Shown: positions 27,501-61,315, counted from the first letter of the stretch. The stretch: 64,000 nucleotides of DNA from an uncultured bacterium (GCA_964372875.1 CAYJTB010000004.1:4343-68342), one strand, 5' to 3'. Program-made: numbers and translations. The notes: a model not told the origin generated them from the letters alone.

Positions 27501-27549
27501 ACCCTGTGGGTTTCCTCGATGCGAGGCATCGAAGAATGGAGATGATGGG

Positions 27550-44019: not shown

Positions 44020-44175
44020 GTTACTATCATTAAAATTATCCAAGTCCCATTTTGTTTTTATCCCGACGCGGTCGGGGGAACGGAAGTTTATGCCGAAGCG
44101 CTCGCTAAAAATTTGAAAAAGCTGAGCATAGAATCCGTAGTTTGCGAGCCTGCGGAGAGAGAAGAAGTGATATAA
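44020..44175 (+). pseudogene. Orphan 5' fragment of a GT4 gene (about 50 codons), duplicating the start of the GT4 gene at 44934.
   Basis: It translates to IIKIIQVPFCFYPDAVGGTEVYAEALAKNLKKLSIESVVCEPAERE, against the intact gene's FKTLQVPFCFYPDAVGGTEVYVEALAQGLKKFGVESVICAPAEKE. The first roughly 70 nt are near-identical and similarity then decays. Confidence 0.6.
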
Positions 44176-44200
44176 TGCCGCCAAAAGGGAAGAGAAACTC

Positions 44201-44536
44201 ATGAACATTCAAGAAACTCCCAACCAAAAAGTCATTCTCGATATCGTCGATAGAATCAAAAAAAACTACCGTCCTCAAAAAATCATTCTTTTCGGTTCCT
44301 ACGCTTACGGCCAGCCTCATCGGGATAGCGATATTGATTTGATGGTCGTTAAAGAAACTTCCGAAAGACCCATCGATCGGAGAGTGAATGTTAGCCGGAT
44401 TGTTTCGGATCCAAAGCGGCTTGTCCCATTCGGGGTGATCGTATTGACTCCTCAGGAGCTTTCCGATCGGCTTAATCGGGGAGATCAATTTATTGCTGAG
44501 ATTATAAAAAATGGCAGAATCTTGTATGAAGGGTAA
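44201..44536 (+). CDS. Minimal nucleotidyltransferase (MNT), the antitoxin-like partner of a HEPN protein.
   Basis: ILFGSYAYGQPHRDSDIDLMVV (GS...DxD). Confidence 0.75.
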   Translation: MNIQETPNQKVILDIVDRIKKNYRPQKIILFGSYAYGQPHRDSDIDLMVVKETSERPIDRRVNVSRIVSDPKRLVPFGVIVLTPQELSDRLNRGDQFIAEIIKNGRILYEG

Positions 44537-44921
44537 AGAATCCAATTATCCTTCGGACTGGTTCCGGCTCGGCGACAAAGAACTTATCCGCGCAAGAAAT
44601 CTTCTAAAACTGGATGACCTGGACGGAGCCGCTTTCAACCTTCAGCAGGCTTTGGAAAAATATCTCAAAGGCTATCTGCTCTCAAAGGGATGGGCGCTTC
44701 GCCGGATTCATGATTTGGACACTCTTTTGAACGAGACCGTTCAGCATGATGCCTCCTTTGAGAAATTTCGGGAAGCCTGTCTAAAAATTACTCAATATTA
44801 CATCGAAGATCGTTATCCTTTCACGGGGAATTCCGAGTTAACCAAGACAGAAATCGAGGATTCTCTTGAAACTTCAGAACAATTGATAAAAAAAATTCGC
44901 CGGTCATTTGATTTGATCTAG
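44511..44921 (+). CDS. HEPN-domain protein, the toxin-like partner of the MNT.
   Basis: Alpha-helical, with the Rx4-6H motif (RRIHDL). It overlaps the MNT gene by 26 nt. Confidence 0.7.
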   Translation: MAESCMKGKESNYPSDWFRLGDKELIRARNLLKLDDLDGAAFNLQQALEKYLKGYLLSKGWALRRIHDLDTLLNETVQHDASFEKFREACLKITQYYIEDRYPFTGNSELTKTEIEDSLETSEQLIKKIRRSFDLI

Positions 44922-44933
44922 TCACTTCTTCTT

Positions 44934-46310
44934 TTGTTCAAAACTCTCCAAGTCCCATTTTGTTTTTACCCCGACGCGGTCGGGGGAACGGAAGTTTATG
45001 TTGAAGCACTCGCTCAAGGTTTAAAAAAATTTGGAGTGGAGTCCGTGATATGCGCGCCGGCTGAAAAGGAGAGCGCCTATTCTCACAAAGGTCTCAAGGT
45101 TCGGCGCTTTGCTGTTCCTTCTGCGGTAAGTGATCTTCGGGAGCTTTACGGTGAAGGGAATTTCGAAGCAGCCCGGGCATTCTCCAAGATTTTGGATGAG
45201 GAAAAACCGGACCTTGTTCATCTTCACGCCTTCACGCGCGGCGTTTCTCTTCGTTTGGTACGCGAAGCAAAATCCAGAGGAATTCCTATTATCTTTACAT
45301 ATCACACGCCGACCGTGAGTTGCCAGCGGGGAACCTTGGTGCGTTGGGGTAAAGAAATCTGTGACGGCGTTCTTCGGCAGCGTCTCTGTTCTCAATGCAC
45401 GCTTCATGGCTTGGGAATGAATCGATTGGCTGCTCAAGCAATAGGAAGTCTTCCGTCCGTCGTCGGCCGGCTCATGGGACGAATGGGTCTCGCTGGAGGA
45501 GCTTGGACGGCCCTCCGAATGTCAGAACTTGTCAGACTCCGCCACCAAACACTTCATCGGTTTCTAGGAGAAGTTGACTCCATTGTTGCAACAGCTTATT
45601 GGGTCAGGGATCTTCTGGTTCGGAATCACGTATCCCCTCACAAGATCGCCGTCTCTCGGTATGGATTGTGTCAACCCTCCGCGCTCTCTACGAACTGCTC
45701 AAAATCGGAAGTCACGAGCTCACGACTAAGATTAAAAGTTGCTTTTATGGGTCGCATGGATAAGACCAAAGGACTTCATATTTTGATTCAGGCTGTGAAA
45801 TCGTCTCTTCGCCTTTCCGTCACCTTGGATCTTTATGGGGTTGCGCAAGGAGAATTCGGCCATGGCTATGAACGGGAGATGCATGCTTTGGCCGGAGAGG
45901 ATAGACGAATCACTTTCCATCCCTCCCTCCATGGCGAAGAAATTATATCTACATTGAAAAATTTCGATGTCCTCGCCGTCCCCTCTCAATGGTTGGAGAC
46001 AGGACCTATGGTGGTTCTGGAGGCATTCGCAGCTGGAATTCCCGTCGTGGGGTCGAATTTAGGCGGGATTTCAGAATTTGTTAAACATGAAACCAACGGC
46101 CTTTTGGTGGAAGAATTTCGATCAGCAAAAACATGGGCCGAATCCTTTCAGCGGCTTGTTGACAGCCCGGATTTGGTGGCCCGTTTGTCACGTGGGATAA
46201 AAGCTCCGAGAACCGTAGAAGAAATTGCCCAAGATATAATGTCTTTATATGAAACCCAACTTAGAAACAAAAACCCAAAGATTAAAGCCGCCCATGATGC
46301 CGACACTTAG
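44934..46310 (+). CDS. Glycosyltransferase family 4.
   Basis: GT-B fold with a C-terminal motif (ETGPMVVLEAFAAGIPVVGS). Confidence 0.75.
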   Translation: MFKTLQVPFCFYPDAVGGTEVYVEALAQGLKKFGVESVICAPAEKESAYSHKGLKVRRFAVPSAVSDLRELYGEGNFEAARAFSKILDEEKPDLVHLHAFTRGVSLRLVREAKSRGIPIIFTYHTPTVSCQRGTLVRWGKEICDGVLRQRLCSQCTLHGLGMNRLAAQAIGSLPSVVGRLMGRMGLAGGAWTALRMSELVRLRHQTLHRFLGEVDSIVATAYWVRDLLVRNHVSPHKIAVSRYGLCQPSALSTNCSKSEVTSSRLRLKVAFMGRMDKTKGLHILIQAVKSSLRLSVTLDLYGVAQGEFGHGYEREMHALAGEDRRITFHPSLHGEEIISTLKNFDVLAVPSQWLETGPMVVLEAFAAGIPVVGSNLGGISEFVKHETNGLLVEEFRSAKTWAESFQRLVDSPDLVARLSRGIKAPRTVEEIAQDIMSLYETQLRNKNPKIKAAHDADT

Positions 46311-47141
46311 ACAGGCTATCCGTAAGGCATGTCGTTACTTCGAAGAGATGAGGTTTATTTTCAGGTTTGGTGCCAATCAAAAGATTACGTGGTCCTTGCT
46401 TATCGCCATGACTCAGTTTCACCTGCGGAACCACTTTGGCCGGACAAAAAAGAACCAAAAGGAAGCCACGAAGCGTTACTGCCTTAAGTTAATGAACCGA
46501 ACCATTGATGTCTGGTTTCGTACTTATGCGGGCGATCTCTTCGTCTTGAACGAAGTATTTTTAGATCAATGCTATCGATTGCCGAAATTCCTGGATTGTT
46601 CTTTTCGGAATATCATCGATCTCGGAGCCAATGTAGGTTTGACCACACTCTATTTCAGCCAGTATTTTCCAAAAGCTAATTTTGTCTGCATTGAACCAAA
46701 CCCGGAAAACTTTCTCCTCCTTAAAAGAAATCTTTCATCTCTGAGAGTCACCCTCATTGAAGAGCTGTCAATTCTCATTCTGGAGAAGCTTGGTTTGACG
46801 ATTCGAAGCCGAGTTGGGGCGGATGCCTCACCACCATGCGCCCTTCGGGGAAGGAGATCAGAACTTATTCAATGGACCAAATCATGCAAGAATGCGGTTT
46901 GGAATCGACCGATCTTCTCAAGGTAGATATCGAGGGAGCAGAAAAACAGGTGTTTGACGGTGTCAAAGCATGGCTTAACGTCGTTAAAATGATCATCATT
47001 GAACTACATGGAAGCTATCCCCTTGCCGATTTCGAAAAAGAGGTATCAAAGAGTGGATTTCGGGTATTACCTCCAAATTCAGAATACAGAAACAAAATGG
47101 TTATGGCCCTATCACCTACCGCAATCTCGAAAGAATTTTGA
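46249..47141 (+). pseudogene. FkbM-family methyltransferase split by a frameshift into two ORFs (46249..46926 and 46836..47141).
   Basis: The N-terminal part carries IIDLGANVGLTTLYF (the FkbM SAM motif). The C-terminal part (LLKVDIEGAEKQVFDG...ELHG) is in a different frame. Confidence 0.5.
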
Positions 47142-47144
47142 ATT

Positions 47145-48296
47145 TTGAATAAGGTTATCTACATACAGTATACCAATCCAGCCGGATACCCTTCGCTGGA
47201 ACACAGCTCCCGGATTCTGGCGGACCGCGGCTGGCAGGTACGCTTCTTAGGCACGGGTGCCTTTGGCGCGAATAGATTGCAATTTCAGGAACATCCCAGG
47301 ATTTCGGTCAAACTTCTTCCCTTCTGCCGCGAAGGATGGAAACAAAAACTTCACTATCTCTGGTTTTGTGTCTGGACGATTACTTGGTTTCTATTCTGGC
47401 GCCCCCAATGGATCTACGCTTCGGACCTTTGGTCATGCCCCCTTGCTTGGTTCCTGAGCCTCCTAGGAGCACGAATCATTTATCACGAACATGATTCACC
47501 CGGAAGTTCTGGCGGAAGATTATGGTTTAACCTATGTCATTGGTGTCGGAGAAAAATCGCTCGTCAAGCCAATGTAGTCGTCATTCCAAGTAAAGAACGA
47601 GCGGACAGATTTTTAAATGATACTCAGACTCATCGTATGATCCATTGCATTTGGAACTGCCCAAGCAAAAGAGAAATGTCCACCTTGCGTCAATCTCTCG
47701 CCAAAGAAAATGGCGATCCCACCCTCAAAATTTATTATCACGGGAGTCTCAATCCTTATCTGCTTCCGTTAACGTTGCTAAAGGCGCTTGCATTGCTGGA
47801 GGGGCAGGTTCGGTTATTGGCTATCGGTTACGAAACAGTCGGTTCTCAAGGTTATCGAAATATTTTTGAACAAAGAGCCAAGGAAATAGGTGTAAAAAAA
47901 TATGTATCTCTCTTTCCGCCGAAGCCTCGGTCCGAGTTGTTTCATTTAGCGGCACAATGTGAAGTAGGACTGGCTCTCTTTCCGATGCACTCGGACGATT
48001 TCAATTTTCAACACATGGTAGGGGCTTCCAACAAACCTTTCGATTACCTAGCGAACGGCCTCGCCGTTTTGGTTTCTGATCTGCAAGATTGGAAGGAGAT
48101 GTATGTGGAGCCGGGGTATGGATTGGCTTGTGACCCCAGTGACCCCCAAAGTATTGCTGCCCGTCTTCAGTGGTTTTTAGACCACCGTGAAGAAACGCAA
48201 TCTATGGGCGAGCGCGGCCGGCAGCGGATTTTATCCGAGTGGAATTATGAACGGCAGTTTGCGCCGGTTTTGAAACAGCTACTGGTCCACCGATAA
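47145..48296 (+). CDS. Glycosyltransferase family 4.
   Basis: GT-B fold with N-terminal WQVRFLG and a C-terminal nucleotide-sugar-binding domain. Confidence 0.7.
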   Translation: MNKVIYIQYTNPAGYPSLEHSSRILADRGWQVRFLGTGAFGANRLQFQEHPRISVKLLPFCREGWKQKLHYLWFCVWTITWFLFWRPQWIYASDLWSCPLAWFLSLLGARIIYHEHDSPGSSGGRLWFNLCHWCRRKIARQANVVVIPSKERADRFLNDTQTHRMIHCIWNCPSKREMSTLRQSLAKENGDPTLKIYYHGSLNPYLLPLTLLKALALLEGQVRLLAIGYETVGSQGYRNIFEQRAKEIGVKKYVSLFPPKPRSELFHLAAQCEVGLALFPMHSDDFNFQHMVGASNKPFDYLANGLAVLVSDLQDWKEMYVEPGYGLACDPSDPQSIAARLQWFLDHREETQSMGERGRQRILSEWNYERQFAPVLKQLLVHR

Positions 48297-48321
48297 ATCA
48301 TAGGGAGTTCAGATATGAGGG

Positions 48322-49617
48322 CTAAAGAAGATAGTACCAGGCGGGGATCATCCGGATTTTCCCGGAAATCTGGTAGCGATCCTTTGAAACCAGGATTTTT
48401 GATTTGCTCTTTAGAGAAGTCTTCTGAAAAGCTTCCATTTCCCGCGGTGGAATCGAATCCGTATAGCAAGTCTGGACCAAATGAGTCCCCTGTTTAAGAA
48501 AAGCGAAATCAATCTCGGGATCTTCGGTGTACCCCAGCCCCTTTTCATCCTTGAGGGCCTGGAAAACCAGGTTTTCAATCAGGAAGCCGCTGTCCCGGTC
48601 GACATTCCATGCCGCCGCATTTCGCAGACCGATATCAGCGACATAAATCTTCTTGCGAATCGTTTCTCTAAGTCTGGGTTTGAGGGAAAAGGAAAAGGGA
48701 GGAAGAAAGGAAAAAAGACCCGACCTTTCAAAGTAAGTCAGATATTCTTTCAAGGTATCGACGGCGATGTTCAAGGTGCCGGCGAGGGAGCGATAGCTCA
48801 GGGCTCTTCCCATGTTCGAGATCAAATATAAGGCCAGGGCTTCCAGTTTAAGGGGTTGTCTAATTTCGTACCTTCTAATCAGGTCACGGTAGAGAATGTC
48901 TTGGAAATATTGTCGAAGCAGGTCTTCCTTTAAGGCGGGGTCCTTGGTGAGAACGATACCTGGAAACCCTCCCTCCTTGAGGTATTTCTCGAAATAATGT
49001 CTCAACTCCGCTCTTTGATCGATCAGGGCTTCGTAAGAGCCCCTCTCGGGCACTCTGCCCGTCTTAAAGAGGAGATACTCCCGGAAATCAAGGGGTTTGA
49101 TTTCGAAGGAAAGATTTCTTCCCGTGAGGAGGGTGGCCAGCTCAGTGGATTGCACCGCAGAAGAGGAGCCTGTCAGGATCATTTGAAGCGGCCGCTTCTG
49201 TTCATAAACTTTATTTACCCATTTTTCCCAACCCTTTACCTCCTGGATTTCATCCAGGAAGAGAAACATCTCCCCCTTGGGATTCGTGATTTTCTGGAAG
49301 GTCTCAAGGAGTTGGTCGAGAAACGAAGACCGGTCCATTTCGGGAACGAACAAATTGTTTTCGAAATTGACGAAGGCGACGTTCTGCGGAGGGACATGAT
49401 GGTTCAAAAGATGTTGAATCAGTTGGTAGAGAAGGGTGCTTTTTCCGGAACGCCTGACGCCATAGAGGATTTTCACCTCTCTGACGGAGAAGGACTTGTA
49501 AATCTTGGAGATGTATTCCTCTCGCAGGATTCCCACGTGGGTTTTGAACTCTTTTCCGTGCCACCAGGGATTGGCTTGATGGAGAGACTCCTCGATGGCG
49601 GGATTCATGTCAACCAT
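48322..49617 (-). CDS. AAA+ ATPase with a C-terminal DUF4143 domain.
   Basis: Walker A GVRRSGKST, Walker B FLFLDEIQ and a DUF4143-like C-terminal region. It is on the opposite strand to the surrounding glycosyltransferase genes. Confidence 0.7.
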   Translation of the reverse strand: MVDMNPAIEESLHQANPWWHGKEFKTHVGILREEYISKIYKSFSVREVKILYGVRRSGKSTLLYQLIQHLLNHHVPPQNVAFVNFENNLFVPEMDRSSFLDQLLETFQKITNPKGEMFLFLDEIQEVKGWEKWVNKVYEQKRPLQMILTGSSSAVQSTELATLLTGRNLSFEIKPLDFREYLLFKTGRVPERGSYEALIDQRAELRHYFEKYLKEGGFPGIVLTKDPALKEDLLRQYFQDILYRDLIRRYEIRQPLKLEALALYLISNMGRALSYRSLAGTLNIAVDTLKEYLTYFERSGLFSFLPPFSFSLKPRLRETIRKKIYVADIGLRNAAAWNVDRDSGFLIENLVFQALKDEKGLGYTEDPEIDFAFLKQGTHLVQTCYTDSIPPREMEAFQKTSLKSKSKILVSKDRYQISGKIRMIPAWYYLL

Positions 49618-49775
49618 AACCTACAATATACAAATTTTTTGTCAAGTATAATCGACAGAAAAGGGTGCCCCAGGCAAGCCCGGGGGAACCGGAGCAGTAC
49701 CTGCCCGAGGTTCCATGCCCTGGGCAGGTGGCCGAGCGAAGCGAGGTCCCTTGACATATTAACCCTAGCTCTCCT

Positions 49776-49866
49776 TGGCGAAGGCGAGGGAGGTCGCCAA
49801 CGGATCCTGGGCGAATGGAATTATGAACGGCAGTTTGCGCCGGTATTGGAGTTATTAAATGGTTAA
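49776..49866 (+). pseudogene. Orphan 3' fragment duplicating the end of the GT4 gene 47145..48296.
   Basis: It translates to GEGEGGRQRILGEWNYERQFAPVLELLNG* against the intact GERGRQRILSEWNYERQFAPVLKQLLVHR*. There is a 29-nt identical core, and its stop overlaps the next gene's ATG. Confidence 0.6.
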
Positions 49867-51151: not shown

Positions 51152-52342
51152 ATGGAAAGCCTCCTTGTCGTCGAGACTCACCCTATCCAATACCATGCAC
51201 CGGTATATCGGGTATTGCAGCAACAATTTGGGATTCCCGTAACGGCGATTTACGGTTCAGACTTCAGCATTGTGGGTTATAGAGATAGAGAATTTAATGC
51301 AGACTTTGCCTGGGATACGGATCTCTTATCCGGCTACACCTCCATTTTTTTATCCCATGTGGCTCGAGGCGGGGCTGCTTCGATGGAAAAGGTATCTGCC
51401 CACGGTCTCAGAAAGCATCTTCTGGATTTAAATCCCCAAGCTATTTTGATCGTGGGGTACCATTCTTTTTTCCACCAGGCAGCCTTCCATCATTCTCGGA
51501 AACTTGGATGTCCCATTCTTTTCCGTGGCGATACGGCAGACCATGCGGTGAAGCGGGGACTGATCAAAACATGGTTAAGGGACCGCACCCTGAAGTGGTT
51601 TTACTCAAAATGCGAGAGGTTGCTTTATATCAGTCAGCGTTCGTTTGAGCATTTCAGGCGTCTAGGCTGTCCTGAAGAAAAGCTGATTTTCTCTCCTTAC
51701 TGTGTGGACATATCTTCTTTTAGATGCGTCGAAAAAGACAGAGAAGAGCTGCGTCCTCTTGTACGGAAACAACTAGGAATTGATGAAACAGAACTGGCGA
51801 TTCTATTTTCGGGAAAACTGATTCCAAGAAAAGGGCCCGACCTTCTCATAGAAGCCGTCAAAAATCTTCCTCCAAAACTCCGCGAGAAAACCGTTTTGAT
51901 TTTTATGGGAGATGGAAAACTCAGAAGGCAACTTGAGCAACTTTCTTCAGGGTTTCCCGCCAAGAACATACATTTCATCGGTTTTCAGAACCAAACAACC
52001 CTGAGCCCCTATTATCATGCTGCTGATTTGTTTGTTCTTCCAAGTCGTTCCGAAGTGTGGGGTGTCGTGGTTAACGAGGCATTGCACCACGGTCTTCCTT
52101 GTGTAGTTTCACAGGGAGTGGGAGCGGCTCCGGATCTTATTGAGCCGGGCGTGACAGGTGAAATTTTTGAAACTAATTCTCCGGAAAGTCTTGCGCTGGC
52201 CTTACAGCGAGCATTGCATTTAGCGGGGCGGCTTGAAATTCGTCAGAAATGCCGGCAGAAAATGGAAGGATATACCATTCATAAAGCAGCGGAAGGAATT
52301 GCCAGGGCCTTTCACGAAGTTGTGGGAGTCCATGCCGGATAA
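51152..52342 (+). CDS. Glycosyltransferase family 4.
   Basis: EVWGVVVNEALHHGLPCVVS E-x7-E motif. Confidence 0.75.
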   Translation: MESLLVVETHPIQYHAPVYRVLQQQFGIPVTAIYGSDFSIVGYRDREFNADFAWDTDLLSGYTSIFLSHVARGGAASMEKVSAHGLRKHLLDLNPQAILIVGYHSFFHQAAFHHSRKLGCPILFRGDTADHAVKRGLIKTWLRDRTLKWFYSKCERLLYISQRSFEHFRRLGCPEEKLIFSPYCVDISSFRCVEKDREELRPLVRKQLGIDETELAILFSGKLIPRKGPDLLIEAVKNLPPKLREKTVLIFMGDGKLRRQLEQLSSGFPAKNIHFIGFQNQTTLSPYYHAADLFVLPSRSEVWGVVVNEALHHGLPCVVSQGVGAAPDLIEPGVTGEIFETNSPESLALALQRALHLAGRLEIRQKCRQKMEGYTIHKAAEGIARAFHEVVGVHAG

Positions 52343-53360
52343 GCTTTTATTAGTTGGAAATGCCGGAGAAACCCACATCGGATCAAATTTACTTTATGCA
52401 GCTAAAGAATTAGGGCTCGATATCCAATTCCTAGATGTCAGAGAAGCTTACAAGGGTCCGGCGTGGCGGCGTAAAATTAATTGGTGGCTTCTTGAGCATC
52501 GGCCTTCATTGTTAAAAGAATTCAGCCAGAGAATTAAAAGCGCGTGTCAGACATTTCAACCCCGCTGGATGCTTTCGATCGGCATTGCCCCCGTGAATAA
52601 GGAAGCGCTTGAGGAGATTGGCAAACTAGGCACTCAGCGTTTGAATTACCTCACAGACGATCCGTGGAATGCGGCCCACAAGGCCGGTTGGTTTCTGAAG
52701 GCACTGCCACTTTATGATCATATTTTTTCCGTCCGTCGGTCAAATTTATCAGATTTGGATAAAGCCGGATGTAGCCGGGTTTCCTATCTTCCTTTCGCTT
52801 ATGCCCCCGAACTTCATTTCCCCGAATCTCCTGAAACGACAGAGGAAAAAGCACGGTTTGATTGCGACATCGTTTTTGTCGGCGGCGCGGACCGAGACCG
52901 CATCCCTTATATTAAGACCTTGGTTCAAGCAGGCTTTAAAGTTCATCTTTATGGAGGCTATTGGGATCGATATCCAAAAATGAAATCCTGTTACCGGGGC
53001 TATGCGGACCCTCAAACTTTTCGAAAAGCCATCGGCGGCGCAAAAGTTTCACTTTGCCTTGTCCGGCACGCCAATCGGGACGGAAATTCAATGCGCACAT
53101 TTGAGATTCCCGCGATCGGTGGTTGCATGCTGACGGAAGATACCGAGGAACACCGTGAAATTTTTGGAGAAGACGGCAAAGCCGTCGTTTATTTCAAAAC
53201 GATTCCTGAAATGATAGAAAAACTAAAGTATCTTTTGTGTCACCAGGAAGAAACCCAGAGATTAAAAATAGCTGCTTACCGGTTGATCATTCATGGAAAG
53301 AATGCTTACAAGGATCGCCTCGGGACAATGCTCCAATTTAAGGAAACAAAGAATGGATGA
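52332..53360 (+). CDS. CgeB-family (DUF3880 / Glyco_trans_1_2) glycosyltransferase-like protein.
   Basis: It is paralogous to the C-terminal region of 24545..25699 (VFVGGADRDRIPYIKTL...IPAIGGCMLTED...ETQRLKIAAYRLI). Confidence 0.55.
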   Translation: MPDKLLLVGNAGETHIGSNLLYAAKELGLDIQFLDVREAYKGPAWRRKINWWLLEHRPSLLKEFSQRIKSACQTFQPRWMLSIGIAPVNKEALEEIGKLGTQRLNYLTDDPWNAAHKAGWFLKALPLYDHIFSVRRSNLSDLDKAGCSRVSYLPFAYAPELHFPESPETTEEKARFDCDIVFVGGADRDRIPYIKTLVQAGFKVHLYGGYWDRYPKMKSCYRGYADPQTFRKAIGGAKVSLCLVRHANRDGNSMRTFEIPAIGGCMLTEDTEEHREIFGEDGKAVVYFKTIPEMIEKLKYLLCHQEETQRLKIAAYRLIIHGKNAYKDRLGTMLQFKETKNG

Positions 53361-54330
53361 GTGGTTAAAACAGCATCTGATTTGCCCTCGGGACGATCAA
53401 CGTCTTCAACGGGAGGAAGAAACATTAATTTGTGCTTTGGGGCATACTTATCCGTGCATTGACGGAATCCCCGTGATGTTGTTAAATGAAATTCTTCCAA
53501 CTCATGCGGCTTGTTCCAGAAGTATCCAACAGGCCTATTCTGAAAGTTATATCGCCTCATCTAATAGGGTAAAGCAGGAATCTAGCACCATAGACTCTTT
53601 TGTCCAAAAGGAAATTTCAGCCACTAACGGTCTCATGTACAAACATCTCATCGGAAATTTACCCCGTTATCCCATTCCTGAATTTTCTCTGAAGCCTGAG
53701 ACGGATGAAAATTATCTTTTAGATATTGGATGTAACTGGGGGAGGTGGAGTATCGCAGCGTCTCGAAAGGGTTTTAAAGTGGTAGGAATTGACCCGTCGC
53801 TTGAGGCAATTATGGCTGCGCGCCGTGTGGCAAACCAATTGAATACACATGCCGCATTTGTTGTGGCGGATGGAAGACACATCCCTTTTTCAAGGTGTAG
53901 CTTTGACACGGTTTTTTCATACAGCGTCTTACAGCATTTTTCGGAGCGTGATGTCGAAGCTGTTTTAACTAGAGTTGCTCAAGTTTTAAAACCGGGCGGT
54001 ACGTCTTTGATCCAAATGGCAAATATGTTTGGAGTAAGAAGCCTTTACCATCAGATAAGGCGAGGTTTTAAAAAACCCACAAACTTTCAAGTAAGATATC
54101 GTCGCCCATCTCAATTGAAAAATGCATTCGAAAAATTCATAGGGCCGTCCCGTGTATTTGTAGACGGTTTCTTTGCCCTCAACCCGCAGGAGAGCGATTT
54201 GGATCTGTTACCGCTCCGTTACCAAATTGTTATTAAACTATCTAATGCGTTGCGACGATTTAGCGAGAAAGTTCATGGGGTAGGGTATTTGGCAGATAGT
54301 CTTTACATTCAATCCAAGAAAAATTCATGA
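53353..54330 (+). CDS. Class I SAM-dependent methyltransferase with an N-terminal Trm112-like zinc-ribbon.
   Basis: An N-terminal CPxD...C..C ribbon followed by LLDIGCNWGRWS (motif I) and DTVFSYSVLQHF (motif II region). Confidence 0.65.
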   Translation: MDEWLKQHLICPRDDQRLQREEETLICALGHTYPCIDGIPVMLLNEILPTHAACSRSIQQAYSESYIASSNRVKQESSTIDSFVQKEISATNGLMYKHLIGNLPRYPIPEFSLKPETDENYLLDIGCNWGRWSIAASRKGFKVVGIDPSLEAIMAARRVANQLNTHAAFVVADGRHIPFSRCSFDTVFSYSVLQHFSERDVEAVLTRVAQVLKPGGTSLIQMANMFGVRSLYHQIRRGFKKPTNFQVRYRRPSQLKNAFEKFIGPSRVFVDGFFALNPQESDLDLLPLRYQIVIKLSNALRRFSEKVHGVGYLADSLYIQSKKNS

Positions 54331-56876: not shown

Positions 56877-58079
56877 ATGAAAGTACTTCACGTTATTCCG
56901 GCAGTGGCGGCTTCCTACGGAGGACCGAGTCAGGCGATTATAGAAATCTGCCATGCCTCCCAAAAGGCGGGTATCACGGTAGAAATCGCGACAACAAATG
57001 CCGACGGAAAAGGAAAGCCTAAGATCTCCAACGAGATCTTCCTCCACAAAAATATTCCAACCCATTTCTTTCCCAGGACCTTCAACTCTGAATACAAATT
57101 TTCATGGCGTATGACGAAATGGTTAGAAAAAAACGTTAGAAAATTCGACCTTCTTCATATCCACTCTATTTTTTGCTATTCCACCACCATCGCAGCCCAT
57201 TTCGCCGGAAAATTTAATGTGCCCTATATTATTCGCCCCGCCGGAGTCCTCGACCCTTGGCCCATGAGGCAGCATCGGCTGAAAAAACAGTTTTACTTGG
57301 ATTGGCTGGAACGCAGCAACCTAAACCACGCCGCCGCCATTCACTGCACCTCGGAAAAAGAGAGAGAGTCAGTGGTCCGGTTTGGTTTTGAAGCGCAGCC
57401 GGTCGTTCTTTCTTTGAGCCTTGAGATCGACGAAAAATTTAGAAATCTCGAAAAGGGCCTGTTCCGGAAAAGACACTCCAAATTCGGAAATAAAAAACTG
57501 ATTGTTTTCTTATCGCGGATTCATAAGAAGAAGGGAATTGAACTTCTGATTGATTCATTGTCTCGCATTCGAGGCTCGCTGCCGGATTTCCTTCTGGTGA
57601 TTGCAGGGAACGGAAGGGATCATTACGAAAGGCTTATCAAGAAAAAAATAAAAGAATCCAAGTTGGAAGCCCAAACGTTTTTCACGGGATTTCTGCAAGA
57701 TACGGCAAAATACCAGCTTTTGAAAGATGCCGATCTTTTCGTCCTTCCTTCTTATCAGGAAAATTTCGGTTTTTCCGTAATTGAAGCAATGCAAATGGGG
57801 GTGCCGGTGATTGTTTCTTGCCACGTAGATATTTCAAAAGAAATAGAATCTTTTAAGGCCGGCCGAGCTATCCCTTGCGATGCCGGCACGCTCGGCCAGA
57901 CGATCCATGATTTGCTTAAGGATGACTCAGAAAGATGCCAAATGGGGGAAAATGCAAAACGGCTCGTGGCGGAAAAATTCGGTCGGGAAAAGATGACCGA
58001 AGGTCTCCTTCTTTTATATCAGTCAATTCTCGAAAAAAGAAAACCCGCTCTGTGCGCACCCTCTCAACCATTGTCCTGA
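56877..58079 (+). CDS. Glycosyltransferase family 4.
   Basis: An N-terminal GGP motif (YGGPSQ) and a C-terminal ENFGFSVIEAMQMGVPVIVS. Confidence 0.75.
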   Translation: MKVLHVIPAVAASYGGPSQAIIEICHASQKAGITVEIATTNADGKGKPKISNEIFLHKNIPTHFFPRTFNSEYKFSWRMTKWLEKNVRKFDLLHIHSIFCYSTTIAAHFAGKFNVPYIIRPAGVLDPWPMRQHRLKKQFYLDWLERSNLNHAAAIHCTSEKERESVVRFGFEAQPVVLSLSLEIDEKFRNLEKGLFRKRHSKFGNKKLIVFLSRIHKKKGIELLIDSLSRIRGSLPDFLLVIAGNGRDHYERLIKKKIKESKLEAQTFFTGFLQDTAKYQLLKDADLFVLPSYQENFGFSVIEAMQMGVPVIVSCHVDISKEIESFKAGRAIPCDAGTLGQTIHDLLKDDSERCQMGENAKRLVAEKFGREKMTEGLLLLYQSILEKRKPALCAPSQPLS

Positions 58080-58903
58080 CTTATAACGAAGAGAAGAATC
58101 TCGAAACCTGTTTGAGAAGTCTTCAATCTTTGGATGCAGAGGTCTTCATTGTTGACTCAGGCAGTAGTGACCGAACCCTTGAAATCGCGAGCCGCTACAC
58201 GGAAAAAATTTATACCCACCCTTTCGAAACCCATGCCAAACAATGGAATTGGGCGTTTCAAAATCTTCCTCTCTCGGGCGATTGGATTTTAGCTTTGGAT
58301 GCCGATCAAAGGTTGACTCCCGAACTTCAAGAGGAAATTCAACAAGATGTTTTAAGGGGCGCTCCCTCTCAAATCGGCGGTTTCTATATCAAGCGCCGCC
58401 AAATTTTTCGAAATCGCTGGATCCGTCACGGGAGCTATTATCCTAAATACCTTCTCAAATTATTTCGCAAAGGAGAAGGCCATTCTGATGAAAATGAATT
58501 ATTGGATTTTCGGTTTTATGTGCGCAGAAAAACAACTAAACTTCGATGCGACTTAATTGAGGACAACCAAAAAGACAACGACCTTAACATTTGGATGGCT
58601 AAACACATCCGCTTTGCCGAGATTCAGGCGCGTGAAGAATTCTTACGCCGGAAAAATGGGATAGCCTGGAGTATCAAACCCGCTTTTATGGGGTCACCCG
58701 ATCAAAGAACCTTACTGCTTAAGGGCCTTTGGCACCGGCTGCCCCTTTATGTGAGGCCTTTTCTATATTTTTTTTACCGTTATTTTCTAAGGTTCGGATT
58801 CCTCGACGGCAAAGAAGGTTTTATTTTCCATTTCTTGCAAGGATTGTGGTATCGACTACTCATAGATATTCATCTGGATGAATTGAGGAAAAAAAACGAA
58901 TGA
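58052..58903 (+). CDS. Glycosyltransferase family 2.
   Basis: A GTG start giving (M)RTLSTIVLTYNEEKNL and a DSGSSD motif. It overlaps the upstream GT4 gene by 28 nt. Confidence 0.65.
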   Translation: MRTLSTIVLTYNEEKNLETCLRSLQSLDAEVFIVDSGSSDRTLEIASRYTEKIYTHPFETHAKQWNWAFQNLPLSGDWILALDADQRLTPELQEEIQQDVLRGAPSQIGGFYIKRRQIFRNRWIRHGSYYPKYLLKLFRKGEGHSDENELLDFRFYVRRKTTKLRCDLIEDNQKDNDLNIWMAKHIRFAEIQAREEFLRRKNGIAWSIKPAFMGSPDQRTLLLKGLWHRLPLYVRPFLYFFYRYFLRFGFLDGKEGFIFHFLQGLWYRLLIDIHLDELRKKNE

Positions 58904-58970
58904 TCATCCTCGGAATCAACGCCTATCACGGCGATGCAGCGATAATTCCGAAGAGTGGTTATTGACGTTT
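58902..58970 (+). pseudogene. Orphan 5' fragment (22 codons) duplicating the start of the carbamoyltransferase gene at 59555.
   Basis: MIILGINAYHGDAAIIPKSGY* against the intact MIILGINAYHGDASAALIVDG. Its ATG overlaps the GT2 stop (aATGAtc) as an operon-coupled start would. Confidence 0.6.
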
Positions 58971-59237
58971 GAGAAATCGCTCGATTTCGTCATGATTTCC
59001 ATACAAGGCAAGGTAATAATCAATGCCGATCTTCTTCATGATGATCCGATTCTTAAGGTCTACGCGAATCTCAAATTTATCCATGGCTAATTTCTTAAAG
59101 CCGAGTCCCGCGTTCATTTCTCCCGTTCGAATGAAGTGATCGAACGCCAAGAGAGATTTTTCTACAGATCGAGCTTCTTGACCTCTCAGTTTTTGAATCT
59201 GTTTGAGGAAGGTGGGAAGATAAAAAACGCGGCTCAC
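58959..59237 (-). CDS. RelE/ParE-family type II toxin-like protein.
   Basis: A roughly 92-aa basic protein with a FEIRV...IIM..IG..YYLALYG.H pattern. It is translationally coupled to the upstream AbrB/MazE-like gene. Confidence 0.5.
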   Translation of the reverse strand: MSRVFYLPTFLKQIQKLRGQEARSVEKSLLAFDHFIRTGEMNAGLGFKKLAMDKFEIRVDLKNRIIMKKIGIDYYLALYGNHDEIERFLKRQ

Positions 59238-59491
59238 GAACGCTTGAAAAGCTGCCGAACTTGCTCAGTCCCCCGAACGGGAACTGCCTGGTCTTTTTCT
59301 TGCGCTACAATGTGGTCAAGTCCCTCCAACGCCGTCTTTGAATAAAGAGGTTCCGGGGTAATGGGGATGATATGAATAATATTGTGGTCGACAACCACTT
59401 GGACGTAGCGCTCTGGGCCGAAGTTCACTTTCTCTGCAACTTCTTTAGGGATATTGAGTTGATTCCGACCATTGATTCGGGTAATGTTCAT
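59234..59491 (-). CDS. AbrB/MazE/SpoVT-family antitoxin-like DNA-binding protein.
   Basis: MNITRINGRNQLNIPKEVAEKVNF is a swapped-hairpin beta-barrel motif. The start is taken at the internal Met (59491). Confidence 0.5.
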   Translation of the reverse strand: MNITRINGRNQLNIPKEVAEKVNFGPERYVQVVVDHNIIHIIPITPEPLYSKTALEGLDHIVAQEKDQAVPVRGTEQVRQLFKRS

Positions 59492-59554
59492 CTTGGTCTC
59501 CTTGAGTAAAGGTAGCATAAGTACGTAATAAATGCAAATACTTATTAGATATCA

Positions 59555-61315
59555 ATGATTATCCTCGGAATTAATGCGTATCACGGTGATGCATCGGCGG
59601 CGCTCATTGTCGACGGAAAGCTCGTCTGTGCGATTGAGGAAGAGCGGCTTAATAGGATCAAACATTCGGCGGGGCTTCCAAGCCAAGCCGCGCGTGAAGT
59701 CTTGGCTCAAGCCGGAATTTCTGCTGATGATATTAACTTCATTTCTACTTCAAGAAATCCGGCCGCGAATCTTTTTCCTAAACTCGGGTTTATTTTAAAG
59801 ACGAAACCCCCGGTTTCATTTTTAAAGGATCGTCTTAGCGTTGCAGCTCATTCCAGAAATTTTCTGGGAAATCCGGCTGTCCTTTTAGAAGAAAATAAGA
59901 CTTTGAAGACAAAAGGCATCGCGGTCGAACATCATCTCTCGCACGCGGCAAGCGCCTTTTACCCGTCCGGCTTCGAGCGCGCGGCACTTCTTACGGTTGA
60001 CGGTTTCGGCGATTTCTCAAGCACGATGTTTGGCGAGGGAGTCGGAAACCGCATCAAAGTATTAAAACGCGTCCTTTTTCCGCATTCCTTAGGCGTCCTT
60101 TACACCGCCGCGACACAATTTTTAGGGTTTCCTAAATACGGTGATGAATATAAGGTGATGGGGCTTGCAGGCTTCGGTGAGCCTAGATTTTTAAAAGAAT
60201 TTCGCGAGATGATCCATTTAGAATCCGACGGGACCTTTAAATTAAATCCCGGCTATTTTCTTCATCCCAAAGGGCAATCGGATATGACGTGGTCGGAAGG
60301 GGAACCCATCTTAGGATCTCTTTATTCCGAAAAATGGATTTCCATTTTTGGTCCCCCGCGCCACCCCGAAGAAAAATTAAGCCGGAGAGACAAAGATATC
60401 GCTGCTTCAACGCAAGCTATTTTTGAAGAAGTCTATTTCCATCTGATGAATCATCTCTATGAAAAAACAAAACTTGAAAATCTTTGCCTTGCAGGCGGAT
60501 GTGCGATGAACAGTCTCGCCAATGGAAAGATTTTTGATAAAACTTCTTTCAGGAAAGTTTACATCCAGGCCGCTGCAGGTGATGCCGGCACGGCCATCGG
60601 GAGTGCATTTTATGTAGCGCATCACCGGTTAAACCAGCCGCGCAATTTTGTGATGGATCACGCCTATTGGGGACCTGAATTTTCAAAAAGTCAGGTCGAG
60701 CAGGAATTGAAATTAAAAAGAGAAGAACTCAAAAAAACGGGATGTGATATCCGCGAACTGGATGAAAATTTACTCTACCGAGAAACTGCAAAAGTTATTG
60801 CCGGCGGAAAAATCGTAGGATGGTTTCAAGGCAAGATGGAATGGGGAGCTCGCGCGCTTGGAAACCGAAGTATTCTCGTGGATCCGCGCCATCCAGGAAT
60901 GAAAGATATTCTTAATCAAAGAATCAAGCACCGGGAAGGATTTCGTCCCTTTGCCCCCTCTGTTTTAGAAGAGAAGGCAAGCGAGTGGTTTGAAATGAAA
61001 ACCGGATCCTCGCCTTTTATGAATCTTGTTTTTCCAGTCCTGCCGGAAAAAAAAGAAAGAATTCCTGCAGTCACGCATGTAGACGGAACGGCAAGAATTC
61101 ATACGGTCACAGAAAAGACCAACGCCTCTTATGCTCGCTTGATCCGCGAGTTTGAAAAATTAACGGGCGTTCCTATGCTTTTAAACACCTCTTTTAATGA
61201 AAATGAGCCTATTGTTTGCTTACCCCGCGAGGCCCTTGAATGTTTTTTGAGGACGCAAATGGATGTCCTCGTACTGGGCCCTTATTTTATTGAGAAGAGA
61301 AGCACATCAACCTAA
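59555..61315 (+). CDS. Carbamoyltransferase of the NodU/CmcH family.
   Basis: ILGINAYHGDASAAL N-terminus, an HHLSHAASAF motif and a C-terminal YrdC-like/Kae1-like domain organisation. About 586 aa. Confidence 0.85.
   Translation: MIILGINAYHGDASAALIVDGKLVCAIEEERLNRIKHSAGLPSQAAREVLAQAGISADDINFISTSRNPAANLFPKLGFILKTKPPVSFLKDRLSVAAHSRNFLGNPAVLLEENKTLKTKGIAVEHHLSHAASAFYPSGFERAALLTVDGFGDFSSTMFGEGVGNRIKVLKRVLFPHSLGVLYTAATQFLGFPKYGDEYKVMGLAGFGEPRFLKEFREMIHLESDGTFKLNPGYFLHPKGQSDMTWSEGEPILGSLYSEKWISIFGPPRHPEEKLSRRDKDIAASTQAIFEEVYFHLMNHLYEKTKLENLCLAGGCAMNSLANGKIFDKTSFRKVYIQAAAGDAGTAIGSAFYVAHHRLNQPRNFVMDHAYWGPEFSKSQVEQELKLKREELKKTGCDIRELDENLLYRETAKVIAGGKIVGWFQGKMEWGARALGNRSILVDPRHPGMKDILNQRIKHREGFRPFAPSVLEEKASEWFEMKTGSSPFMNLVFPVLPEKKERIPAVTHVDGTARIHTVTEKTNASYARLIREFEKLTGVPMLLNTSFNENEPIVCLPREALECFLRTQMDVLVLGPYFIEKRSTST

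Follow-up and report, generated by a model that had tools for sequence, protein, structure and literature searches.

PrlF-YhaV of Escherichia coli is a type II toxin-antitoxin (TA) system in which an antitoxin of the AbrB/MazE (swapped-hairpin) fold, encoded first, is paired with a ribonuclease of the RelE superfamily, and it is thought to be autoregulated. With regard to the movement of such modules, homology-facilitated illegitimate recombination, described in Acinetobacter baylyi and Streptococcus pneumoniae, imports adjacent foreign DNA by means of one homologous anchor and one join at short microhomology; its scar pairs a homologous anchor with, at the opposite end, a join at 3 to 12 nt of microhomology that lacks extended homology. 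Genomic islands located at gene ends (e.g., of tRNA genes) rebuild their target from sequence borne by the element, and the displaced native end is left as a partial direct repeat on the far side. In the orphan toxin/immunity modules that lie downstream of rhs and cdiA genes, recombination through a conserved stretch of the gene swaps the module and leaves displaced gene ends that can be reused for exchange.

Here, we describe a compact cassette, predicted to be a type II TA system, that lies antisense within a long polysaccharide operon, between two copies of the start of a carbamoyltransferase (CT) gene. It was found in a 64-kb stretch of DNA (the window) from an uncultured groundwater bacterium of Candidatus Omnitrophota, within a surface-polysaccharide gene cluster. 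The cassette appears to pair the same types of antitoxin and toxin as PrlF-YhaV. YhaV, however, has about 150 aa and no detectable sequence similarity, whereas the toxin of the cassette is smaller, and its fold places it among RelE, YafQ, YoeB, and HigB. These mRNA interferases have the same predicted fold, but the partner in the cassette is of the AbrB/MazE type, and RelB, YefM, DinJ, and HigA are not of its kind; moreover, no curated model is matched by the toxin or by the 41 homologues closest to it.

The DNA around the pair can be compared with the recombination systems in the same way. The 9-nt junction of one relative and the truncated cargo genes fit homology-facilitated illegitimate recombination, and in the case of the cassette a short homeologous gene-end copy remains because the proposed join lies within the anchor gene. 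That process is known from transformable bacteria, whereas the events considered here are inferred from scars in metagenome contigs, and none of the papers searched linked it to TA cassettes. The cassette would likewise rebuild its target in the manner of gene-end islands, but no integrase was found in the scanned ORFs of the locus and no conserved att core at the cassette ends, its boundaries vary, and the insert has only 613 nt. In rhs and cdiA, the exchanged parts are the 3' toxin tips of one large gene, whereas here the conserved stretch spans the opening ~15 codons of a biosynthetic gene and the cargo is an unrelated TA pair.

Organization of the cassette

The insert between the two copies of the CT start carries, on the minus strand, a promoter/operator region, the antitoxin gene, and the toxin gene (Table 1). 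The two small genes are adjacent and co-oriented, with the antitoxin first, and the antitoxin stop overlaps the GTG start of the toxin by 4 nt (GTGA), which is the layout of type II TA systems. They are kept as a pair in all 12 of the distinct contexts seen, and both are under purifying selection as judged by pN/pS, which for the toxin is 0.15 to 0.25 against four more distant homologues and 0.38 against the near-identical locus L002.

Table 1. Features of the cassette, its flanking genes, and the other gene-end repeats (positions in the window)
Feature	Position	Strand	Basis or remark
D3, 3' end of wzm (ABC-2 permease), second copy (first copy at 24448-24507)	26071-26130	+	60 nt at 97% identity
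D1, orphan 5' end of a GT4 gene (present start at 44934)	44026-44170	+	125 nt at 81% identity
D2, orphan 3' end of the GT gene at 47145-48296	49783-49866	+	66 nt at 82% identity
GT2 glycosyltransferase, upstream operon gene	58052-58903	+	PF00535 at 3e-18
Orphan (displaced) CT start, codons 1-14, MIILGINAYHGDAA	58900-58941	+	Match to working start
Toxin-distal cassette end, 17 nt, ATAATTCCGAAGAGTGG	58942-58958		Holds the illegitimate junction with the orphan
Toxin, 92 aa, RelE/ParE-superfamily fold	58959-59237	-	AF2 model and Foldseek; GTG start
Antitoxin, 85 aa, predicted N-terminal AbrB/MazE (SpoVT) DNA-binding domain	59234-59491	-	PF04014, TIGR01439
Putative cassette promoter/operator, abutting the working CT ATG	59492-59554	-	Conservation
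Working NodU/CmcH-type CT	59555-61315	+	PF02543 at 1e-57, PF16861 at 4e-71

The 283-aa call for GT2 is that of the identical Logan contig L001; a longer mechanical ORF starts at 57935. Downstream, the first ~45 nt of the CT gene form the second copy of the repeat. The operon begins with a NusG-like gene, and for this reason read-through along the operon probably accounts for the transcription of CT. The antitoxin ORF extends over 59234-59518, and its likeliest start is the second Met, at 59491, which is preceded by AAGGAG.

In front of the antitoxin, a minus-strand promoter is predicted with a -10 hexamer TACCTT (59509-59514), a -35 hexamer TTGCAT (59532-59537), and a 17-nt spacer, together with an inverted repeat ATAAGTA-N15-TACTTAT at 59517-59545 that is a putative operator. 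The site was missed by a generic promoter scan, so that conservation is what supports it: the hexamers (-35 TTGCAT, -10 TAnnnT) and their 17-nt spacing are kept in eight loci from independent contexts.

The toxin-antitoxin pair

A reading made from the sequence only had taken the two small proteins for an AbrB/MazE-like antitoxin and a RelE/ParE-like toxin, and both assignments agree with what was found; a lack of homology to TA components, which that reading had named as counting against it, was not observed. PF04014 (MazE/AbrB) is matched by the antitoxin and all examined homologues (eight to nine; best E of 2e-6). The matches of the antitoxin itself to PF04014 (E = 0.005, 17 bits) and TIGR01439 (E = 3e-5, 23.5 bits) lie below the respective cut-offs of 24.7 and 28.3, and its profile found only AbrB-family regulators in the PDB, at E = 0.5.

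The AF2 model of the toxin (pLDDT 90, pTM 0.80) has the elements b-a-a-b-b-b-b-a, in agreement with the RelE/ParE fold, in which an N-terminal helical hairpin is packed on an antiparallel sheet of three to four strands. Foldseek matched the model to RelE, YafQ, YoeB, HigB, and ParE in the PDB with a probability of 1.0 and TM values of 0.6 to 0.71; the 12 matches with E <= 0.001, and almost every one of the 50 that were listed, are chains of these five toxins. By sequence, the toxin matched no Pfam or NCBIfam family at E <= 0.1 and had no PADLOC or PDB match of its own, and the search of 42 close members of its family with PF05016, PF15738, PF06769, PF05015, PF15781, and PF24732 gave only one match, to Gp49 at 0.03. 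The homologues comprise 41 close ones and 185 clusters obtained by profile search. Distant members of the superfamily do match Pfam (16 to ParE_like, 9 to ParE_toxin, and 9 to YafQ; best 3e-5), and the broadened profile gave weak PDB matches to RelE3 (3bpq, E = 0.012), HigB, and YoeB, so that transitive sequence links to the superfamily accompany the fold. Because no curated model matched and only distant members do, the toxin constitutes a separate sequence family within the RelE/ParE fold. As modeled, it is a new member of the RelE superfamily that belongs to a sequence family outside Pfam and NCBIfam.

Across 125 diverse members, H82 is invariant and E56, R58, and R64 are conserved in at least 90%; G44, E56, R58, R64, and G80 are nearly invariant. 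By residue type, the set E56, R58, R64, and H82 may recall the active site of YoeB. The toxin is probably a ribosome-dependent mRNA endonuclease, but may act instead as a ParE-like gyrase poison.

The displaced start of the carbamoyltransferase gene

The stretch ATGATCATCCTCGGAATCAACGCCTATCACGGCGATGCA, at 58900-58938, is identical to the working CT start at 59555 in 34 of 39 nt. The full repeat, designated D4, covers 58899-58941 and 59554-59596, with 37 of 43 nt identical (blastn E = 1e-6). The best 43-mer match in 200 shuffles of the window was 28/43, which shows that the repeat is not a chance match; the next best real match was 23. The sequence-only reading had noted this duplicate with the correct identity, but had placed it at 58902 and counted 22 codons to the stop. 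The ATG is at 58900 and overlaps the GT2 stop (TGA at 58901-58903) as ATGA, and the ORF has 21 codons before a TGA at 58963-58965. The cassette had likewise been described as lying upstream of CT; it sits instead within the old 5' end of this gene, after codon 14/15, with a replacement start.

The first 13 codons of the orphan and of the working start differ at five third positions, with five synonymous and no nonsynonymous differences (pS 0.60, pN 0), and the longest identical run is 11 nt. Pooling of seven repeat pairs gave a pS of 0.56, a pN of 0.11, and a ratio of 0.19. Duplication of an identical sequence followed by neutral decay of one copy is expected to give a pN/pS of at least 0.5, and a simple duplication of the CT start was rejected, given that the copies differ almost only at synonymous sites. 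The orphan stems, as a homeologous copy, from another CT allele and does not duplicate the resident start.

The same figures weigh against a transposition-like origin, in which ~45 nt of the resident CT start would have been doubled at a staggered cut, with later drift of the upstream copy. Such a target-site duplication would leave direct repeats immediately flanking a short insert, as seen here. The repeats of the locus, however, range from 43 to 125 nt in length and are 81 to 97% identical, terminal inverted repeats are lacking, and the scanned ORFs of the locus include no transposase, which is not the picture of a transposon or insertion sequence. Together with the ratio of 0.19, this makes a target-site duplication hardly credible.

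Codons 2 to 13 of the orphans in the four loci that share the junction of the window (window, L002, L003, and L097) differ by a minimum of 12 synonymous and 2 nonsynonymous changes, although the adjoining toxins reach pS values of 0.6 to 0.8. Conservation at the codon level may also indicate that the orphan is kept by selection, either as a translationally coupled 21-codon ORF or as an antisense segment at the 3' end of the TA mRNA that pairs with the CT start. The encoded MIILGINAYHGDA is kept in the window, L003, and L097, with an ATGA/GTGA overlap, and four of the five differences in the window still permit G-U pairs in the antisense duplex. In L003, however, the differences are mostly not compatible with G-U pairing. 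L002 has two nonsynonymous changes, tail length and stop differ among the orphans, with the stop lost in L097, and L095 has the TA pair and CT with no orphan at all. Moreover, the D1 orphan elsewhere in the window has lost its start codon. Taken with these observations, a selected function of the orphan appears very unlikely.

Junctions in related loci

All loci used for comparison lie on metagenome contigs, which represent a small number of groundwater sites. L092 (CT with 85% aa identity) and L096 (74%) have the arrangement GT2-ATGA-CT with nothing in between, which indicates that the orphan marks the old operon junction. The sequence-only reading had presumed that the overlap of the orphan ATG with the GT2 stop is ancestral, and had allowed that a cassette in all relatives would speak against its view; with these cassette-free variants, the presumption stands.

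The junction of orphan and cassette, ...GCG/AT(A)ATTCCGA..., is common to the window, L002, L003, and L097, where it lies behind four different upstream genes. Between the window and L002, identity is 60% over the 3' end of the GT gene, 92% over the orphan, and 96% over the TA pair and CT start, and this jump from 60 to 92% places a recombination breakpoint at the orphan ATG. Their CT genes are ~95% identical in nucleotide sequence, with a mosaic patch at nt ~100 to 330. L002 and L003 have a defense-candidate ATPase between the TA pair and CT that is absent from the window, and the endpoints of this absence fall within a 5-nt AATGA microhomology.

The reverse-oriented TA pair in front of CT, with a homologous junction of promoter and ATG, is kept in L093 and L095, where CT is only 64 to 67% identical. 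In each of the CT loci that carry the TA pair, the antitoxin promoter lies directly against the CT ATG, and the identities of toxin and CT fall in step across the loci. This co-divergence of the TA pair and the body of CT suggests that CT travelled with the TA pair. In L093, a chimeric ORF at 347-502 fuses CT codons 1 to 23 to the last 28 codons of GT2. The join lies at a 9-nt microhomology, GACGGCAAA, common to CT codons 21 to 23 and the 3' region of GT2, and a cargo gene is truncated at the junction. This chimera is a direct footprint, in this family of loci, of a microhomology join combined with a homologous anchor; the scar of homology-facilitated illegitimate recombination is thus found in L093, and the truncated cargo gene at D3 is suggestive of it. 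The TA family also occurs in two unrelated contexts, flanked by homeologous copies of the 3' end of a kinase gene in L005 and of the 5' end of a SIS gene in L089.

An identical junction in four loci, each with its own upstream gene, is also what site-specific integration would produce, if a mobilizable cassette with a replacement CT start, comparable to the attP side of gene-end islands, had been inserted repeatedly at one position of CT genes by a recombinase encoded elsewhere, displacing the resident start each time. The orphans differ almost only synonymously, as they would if each derived from a functional CT, and an inverted repeat spans the junction (58907-58922 with 58939-58954, 81% complementary), the 17-nt cassette end pairing in part with nt 8 to 17 of the orphan. 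Furthermore, it is always the working copy that adjoins the insert and the orphan that retains the native junction. No integrase or transposase was found, however, among the ORFs of the ~45-kb locus (18.8 to 64 kb) scanned with Pfam, and none was seen in the genes called near the CT junction on the contigs of the relatives; a recombinase may act on the cassette in trans. The cassette ends vary among independent contexts of the TA family, with no terminal motif found and the 17-nt toxin-distal segment not conserved. The ends have no conserved att/attC core and the scanned ORFs no recombinase domain, which is not what characterizes an integrase island or an integron. The junction in L093 is different, being made by microhomology, the junction of TA pair and CT is ancient and co-diverges with CT, and the inverted repeat is weak in L097. 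Site-specific integration is, on this evidence, improbable.

L092, which has no cassette, nests by identity among the cassette-bearing CT alleles, and its junction is exactly as it would be after precise excision. This observation and the direct repeats flanking the insert would fit a Campbell-type integration, in which a circle of cassette and CT start enters through one RecA crossover at the resident CT start, the reverse reaction excising it precisely. The repeats, however, are 86% identical, with no run of identical bases longer than 11, and an extra illegitimate join would be needed to close the circle. Long linear donor fragments with truncated genes are seen in L093 and D3, and the co-divergence described above suggests that the body of CT, and not only its start, moved with the TA pair. 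We consider this route unlikely.

Proposed route of entry

The reading that we favor, with a probability of roughly 0.55, is that the TA pair and CT start entered as a unit, through a homologous crossover in CT combined with a single illegitimate join, and that recombination then spread this unit. A unit of reverse-oriented TA pair and CT would have pre-existed in other alleles of the locus family. From such a diverged allele, a segment comprising the 17 nt, toxin, antitoxin, promoter, and 5' part of the incoming CT would have replaced part of a resident GT-ATGA-CT locus, with the homologous crossover inside CT and the illegitimate join behind codon 14/15 of the resident CT. The start that was brought in would have become the working start, and the first ~45 nt of the resident gene would have been left as an orphan overlapping the upstream stop, with no recombinase of the cassette's own being involved. 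Afterwards, the unit would have spread and persisted by homologous recombination, in which the homology between orphan and CT start would serve as the left crossover zone and CT as the right arm. Such two-arm recombination would explain the different upstream genes before the same junction and the resemblance of the orphans to recently functional CT starts. By analogy with its family, the antitoxin may repress its own promoter at the inverted repeat and neutralize the toxin. Loss of the cassette or decay of the antitoxin would then free the toxin, and deletions or recombinants removing this stretch of the locus would be disfavored.

Several observations count against this proposal. An arm of 45 nt at 77 to 92% identity is short for a RecA-mediated crossover. 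The same junction in four loci and the synonymous-only divergence of the orphans also fit repeated site-specific insertion, and L092 fits loss by recombination between the repeats as well as a cassette that was never gained. Microhomology is seen at the L093 join, whereas at the junction of the window (58941/58942) it is presumed. To our knowledge, natural competence is not established for Omnitrophota.

Other gene-end repeats in the window

The four strongest internal repeats of the window are gene-end repeats, D1 to D4, each of which flanks inserted accessory DNA. D1 (pS 0.52, pN 0.16) brackets an MNT gene (44201-44536; PF01909/PF18765) and a HEPN gene (44511-44921; PF05168). D2 (pS 0.62, pN 0.08), the orphan of which keeps a stop/start overlap with the next gene (49859), brackets a single AAA_14/DUF4143 ATPase on the minus strand (48322-49617; PF13173, PF13635; PADLOC PDC-S01 at 2e-97). 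D3 encloses a GT-like gene (PF13524) and a methyltransferase fragment of 129 aa that is cut off exactly at the junction. The cassette had been called the fourth instance of the same architecture, which is largely correct for the gene-end repeats; a true two-gene TA pair is enclosed only in D1 (MNT and HEPN) and D4.

These repeats allow a tentative suggestion, for which we claim limited confidence: the orphan CT start of ~45 nt, encoding the ultra-conserved MIILGINAYHGDA, may be a portable homology arm of a mobile TA cassette that is guided by homology and free of a recombinase. If this is so, a cassette with CT as its long arm could recombine into any CT-bearing polysaccharide locus, whatever the upstream gene, and its loss would be penalized by the toxin. 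The combination of gene-end copy and cargo would then explain the accumulation of other defense and TA cassettes that lack mobility genes, such as MNT/HEPN and the PDC-S01 ATPase, in surface-polysaccharide operons of Omnitrophota. The TA pair itself is an ordinary kind of gene, and the orphan is the informative recombination scar. The only other significant internal repeats of the window link two AsnB paralogs that lie 21 kb apart.

Orphan start of the carbamoyltransferase gene

The sequence-only reading had proposed that a reverse-strand toxin-antitoxin (TA) cassette was inserted upstream of the NodU/CmcH-type carbamoyltransferase (CT) gene, leaving an orphan copy of the CT start. The copy is present as ATGATCATCCTCGGAATCAACGCCTATCACGGCGATGCA at 58900-58938, and its start had been placed two bases too high; the real CT start is at 59555. 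The repeat formed by the two starts (D4) was also recovered by blastn of the window against itself (E = 1e-6), and the 37 identities in its 43 positions compare with a best value of 28/43 in 200 shuffles of the window. The ATG of the orphan shares bases with the TGA that ends GT2, the gene upstream, giving ATGA, and the orphan open reading frame (ORF) runs for 21 codons to a TGA (58963-58965) that overlaps the stop of the opposite-strand toxin gene. Over codons 1 to 13, all five differences from the working start are synonymous third-position changes.

An inverted repeat (58907-58922 and 58939-58954; 16 nt, 81% complementary, 16-nt loop) pairs nucleotides 8 to 17 of the orphan (TCCTCGGAAT) with the 17-nt end of the cassette (ATTCCGAAGA). 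It is retained with a G-U pair in the related contig L003 and is weaker in L097, and may represent a terminator-like hairpin or a relic of the join.

A probable type II toxin-antitoxin pair with a new toxin family

The two cassette genes, whose coordinates are listed in the table, overlap by 4 nt (GTGA). The antitoxin has a probable N-terminal AbrB/MazE-type domain, with matches to PF04014 (E = 0.005) and TIGR01439 (E = 3e-5) that both fall slightly under the curated cutoffs. All nine homologues from related loci match PF04014 (best 2e-6), and a profile built from the homologues matched only AbrB-family regulators among PDB sequences, weakly (E = 0.5).

By sequence, the toxin had no match in Pfam, NCBIfam, PADLOC, or PDB. 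Its homologues in public data form 41 clusters with lengths of 91 to 95 aa (all but one 91 to 93 aa), and the AF2 model obtained from their alignment has a pLDDT of 90 and a pTM of 0.80. Foldseek matched this model to RelE, YafQ, YoeB, HigB, or ParE in the 12 matches with E ≤ 0.001 and in nearly all of the 50 matches listed (probability 1.0, TM 0.6 to 0.71). A profile search retrieved 185 clusters (50% identity) among 1.84 billion representative proteins; across 125 diverse members, H82 is invariant and G44, E56, R58, R64, and G80 are at least 90% conserved. Some distant members match the ParE_like, ParE_toxin, and YafQ models, and the broadened profile gave weak matches to RelE3, HigB, and YoeB chains in the PDB. 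The fold search and this broadened profile are what link the toxin to RelE/ParE. Both genes show purifying selection (pN/pS of 0.15 to 0.25 at pS up to 0.85). The AbrB-type domain together with the toxin fold, the profile links, and the purifying selection argue for a type II TA module. On its modeled fold, the toxin is a member of the RelE/ParE superfamily that lies outside every curated sequence family, and it represents a new sequence family, overlooked by Pfam, NCBIfam, and PADLOC, whose members partner an AbrB-type antitoxin. From its conserved Glu, Arg, Arg, and His, the toxin would more plausibly be an RNase than a gyrase poison. This is not a new kind of system. E. coli PrlF-YhaV is a precedent for pairing with an AbrB-type antitoxin.

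The TA promoter (−35 TTGCAT, 17-nt spacer, −10 TAnnnT) is conserved in eight loci with different genomic contexts and is overlapped by an inverted repeat, ATAAGTA-N15-TACTTAT, that is likely the operator of the pair. We infer that the pair is autoregulated and that the toxin is active. A generic promoter scan picked up neither this conserved promoter nor any promoter for CT.

Empty and filled sites among related loci

Close relatives, which come from groundwater metagenomes, were gathered by protein search and exact-protein contig look-ups. A scan of genome contigs with CT gave only relatives of ≤56% identity, of no use for the junction, and a scan of metagenome contigs with the toxin profile gave six loci, mostly known already, with no new orphan context. 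Two relatives, L092 (CT 85% identical in amino acids) and L096 (74%), are arranged as GT2-ATGA-CT with nothing between, so that the overlap of the orphan ATG with the GT2 stop represents the ancestral type of junction, as the sequence-only reading had presumed. That interpretation as a whole is supported, subject to the corrections given here.

Three other relatives, L002 (CT 91%), L003 (82%), and L097 (79%), have the architecture of the window and the same orphan/cassette junction (...GAT GCA (TCA) GCG / AT(A)ATTCCGA...). No two of these four loci have the same upstream gene (the genes are a GT4, two types of GT2, and a further GT2 allele), and every one of these genes overlaps the orphan start at its end, as ATGA or GTGA. 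When the window is compared with L002, the final 300 nt of the upstream gene are 60% identical, but identity reaches 92% in the orphan and 96% in the toxin, antitoxin, and CT start. This jump places a recombination breakpoint at the orphan ATG. The CT gene is itself a mosaic, with approximately 95% nucleotide identity to L002 except at nt ∼100 to 330 (62 to 80%), which indicates a separate recombination tract in the CT 5′ region. Recurrence of the architecture in independent assemblies from different samples excludes an assembly artifact.

In L002 and L003, an AAA_14/DUF4143 ATPase gene (PADLOC candidate PDC-S01) that is absent from the window lies between the TA promoter and CT. The endpoints of this difference coincide with a 5-nt microhomology, AATGA, and it reflects a deletion through microhomology in the lineage of the window or else a gain by insertion in the other loci. 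In more distant loci (L095 and L093/L094; CT just 64 to 67% identical), the TA pair is divergent from CT with a homologous promoter/ATG junction, and toxin identity declines in step with CT identity. The linkage between TA and CT is therefore much older than the orphan.

The orphan and working copies come from different alleles

Seven orphan/working pairs (D4, D1, and D2 in the window; L002, L003, L089, and L093) gave a pooled pS of 0.56 and pN of 0.11, a ratio of 0.19, where in-place identical duplication followed by neutral decay of one copy predicts at least about 0.5. Most of the divergence therefore arose while both copies were part of working genes, so that the two are homeologous copies from different alleles. 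The same ratio rejects a classical target-site duplication, which we consider hardly credible.

In codons 2 to 13 of the four shared-junction orphans, there are at least 12 synonymous changes and only 2 nonsynonymous ones, both in L002, while the adjoining toxin genes have reached a pS of 0.6 to 0.8. By our binomial estimate under neutrality, with ∼24% of sites synonymous, a 12/2 split has a probability of about 2e-6. The orphans are therefore not simply decaying remnants of a single old event. A role as a functional ORF or antisense target is very improbable. Separately, the 3′ end of the TA mRNA was considered as an antisense regulator of the CT start and dropped, G-U compatibility being found in the window and not in L003.

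Proposed route of cassette entry

An illegitimate join is preserved in L093. Positions 347-502 of this contig encode MIIFGINAYYHGDAAVVLAVDGK/EGLIFHFCQGFWYRMLVDIRLNELRKKL, in which CT codons 1 to 23 continue in frame into the last 28 codons of GT2 through DGK (GACGGCAAA), common to both parents. The chimera is preceded by the ATPase 3′ end, with the ATPase-CT junction as in L002 and L003, and is followed by a methyltransferase, the TA pair, and a complete CT. A linear fragment carrying the GT2 3′ part, methyltransferase, TA, and CT would here have replaced part of an ATPase-CT locus, with a single homologous crossover inside CT and a single join at the microhomology. What looked like a second orphan in L093 (1101-1126) is the conserved 3′ end of the methyltransferase, also found in L095.

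The best-supported reading of the window, somewhat more likely than not (roughly 0.55), is that a unit of reversed TA and CT from a diverged allele entered a GT-ATGA-CT locus. A single homologous crossover within CT would have been combined with a single illegitimate join located after codon 14/15 of the resident gene. The imported CT start would have become the working start, stranding the resident start as the orphan. Later exchanges of the upstream part, or transfer of the cassette to naive loci, would have crossed over in the short homology between orphan and CT start, the orphan thus serving as a recombination arm. Such crossovers would account for the shared junction behind different upstream genes, for the breakpoint at the orphan ATG, and for orphans that look functional. 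The toxin would act against recombinants from which the cassette is lost.

Campbell-type integration of a circle is an unlikely route, given that the longest identical run between the repeats is 11 bases and that an extra join would be required. Site-specific insertion by a trans-acting recombinase fits the shared junction and the synonymous divergence of the orphans, yet it is less likely still: the cassette ends vary, the L093 junction does not fit, and no recombinase was found among the ORFs scanned. Cassette boundaries range with context from 0 to 20 nt past the toxin stop and from 45 to 100 nt upstream of the promoter, which rejects an element with defined ends, and no terminal motif shared across contexts was found. 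Scanning the window for tRNAs and Rfam families gave no matches; a tRNA-type attachment site is thus absent.

The scar probably reflects a process like homology-facilitated illegitimate recombination and bears a likeness to rhs/cdi orphan modules. Gene-terminus-targeting islands leave similar displaced gene ends, but here no integrase was found among the ORFs scanned. Our literature search found no paper on TA cassettes flanked by homeologous gene-end copies or tied to illegitimate recombination. Most chromosomal TA and small defense cassettes lack mobility genes, and their movement is poorly documented. This locus family keeps together empty sites, filled sites with one junction behind four different neighbors, a microhomology-made chimeric junction, and nested gain or loss of a defense-candidate ATPase. 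With the synonymous-only divergence of the orphans, these states make a concrete, testable case for host recombination as the mover: a conserved biosynthetic gene would supply the homologous anchor, to be combined with an illegitimate join, and later exchange would use the short conserved gene end. The implication for the movement of cassettes without mobility genes is of moderate interest.

Other gene-end repeats

Gene-end repeats flanking accessory inserts (D1 to D4) make up the four strongest repeats within the 64-kb window; the sole other pair links two AsnB paralogues 21 kb apart. In D1, D2, and D4, the orphan retains the native junction with its neighbor and the working copy abuts the insert; in D3, either copy may be the one with the ancestral junction. 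In the D1 orphan, of about 47 codons, ATC stands in place of the start codon, and divergence is otherwise conservative (pS 0.52, pN 0.16). The downstream D2 orphan and the following gene at 49859 still share their stop/start overlap (ATGGTTAA). The D2 ATPase is only 23% identical to the ATPase that adjoins TA in L002, so the two are not the same cassette. In D3, the cargo methyltransferase is truncated (after ∼129 aa) exactly at the start of the second wzm 3′ copy, and the insert and the GT-like/methyltransferase pair at 52233-54330 are no more than distant paralogues.

Coordinates of cassette genes, gene-end repeats, and neighboring features (window positions unless a related contig is named)
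Feature	Location	Strand	Remarks
NusG-like gene	18790-19365		head of ~45-kb plus-strand operon; PF02357, 4e-19
D3	24428-28359		region with several inserts between wzm (ABC-2 permease) and wzt, including the D3 wzm 3′-end repeat (60 nt, 97%)
D3, second wzm 3′ copy	26071-26130		97% identical; insert is GT-like gene and truncated methyltransferase
Solitary MntA-like nucleotidyltransferase	26215-26679	minus	without HepT partner; after D3 insert, before wzt
AbiEi/AbiEii pair	26806-28359		next to MntA, between wzm and wzt
D1	44026-45064		125 nt, 81%; 5′-end copy of GT4 gene (now starts 44934), flanks MNT+HEPN
D1 insert	MNT 44201-44536, HEPN 44511-44921	operon strand	
D2	48207-49866		66 nt, 82%; 3′-end copies of GT 47145-48296, flank PDC-S01-type ATPase
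D2 insert	48322-49617	minus	AAA_14/DUF4143 ATPase; PADLOC candidate PDC-S01, 2e-97
D4	58899-58941 and 59554-59596		43 nt, 86% identity (repeat finder)
Toxin, 92 aa	58959-59237	minus	between orphan and working CT start
Antitoxin, 85 aa	59234-59491	minus	counted from Met after AAGGAG
Working CT gene	59555-61315	plus	
ATPase region	L002 1652-2960; L003 2808-4110		versus window 59543-59558
Histidine kinase 3′ end	L005/L102/L103		flanks AbrB/RelE-like TA
SIS-domain gene 5′ end	L089		flanks AbrB/RelE-like TA

Homeologous gene-end copies also flank this AbrB/RelE-like family in two unrelated settings, namely a histidine kinase gene and a SIS-domain gene; no flanking copies were detected around the pair in L090, L091, L095, or L100/L101. 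In L005 (1-8400; also L006, L007, L102, and L103), cassettes alternate with three paralogous HisKA_7TM histidine kinase genes arranged in tandem; they comprise two AbrB/RelE-like pairs belonging to this superfamily, a DUF433/PIN-like pair, a PhD/ParE pair, and a PDC-S01-type ATPase. Between the two divergent TA promoters there lies an orphan kinase 3′ end (5588-5636).

Host and operon setting

The H+-pyrophosphatase of the window shares 74 to 86% identity with proteins labeled as coming from Candidatus Omnitrophota MAGs. A single plus-strand polysaccharide operon, with the NusG-like gene at its head, extends from 18.8 kb to the window end and comprises wzm/wzt, NeuB/NeuC-type sugar genes, many glycosyltransferases, a Wzy-like protein, CT, and an initiating transferase. 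No integrase or transposase domain was found among the operon ORFs scanned. TA and defense cassettes thus gather in this surface-polysaccharide operon, which belongs to an uncultured phylum. The NusG-like protein, if a specialized antiterminator, would aid transcription through antisense and inserted cassettes.

At 46249-47141, two overlapping plus-strand ORFs (225 and 101 aa) resemble halves of an FkbM-type methyltransferase. The first half has no Pfam match at 1e-4, and a frameshifted pseudogene or an error in sequencing may explain the split.

Neither a Shine-Dalgarno sequence nor a dedicated promoter is recognizable for the working CT start (59492-59554 and the corresponding segments in L093, L095, and L097), and the antitoxin promoter region directly abuts the CT ATG (TTATTAG/ATG in L093 and L095). 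Expression of CT would come from read-through. In the cassette-free loci, the CT start overlaps the upstream stop as ATGA, which would permit translational coupling.
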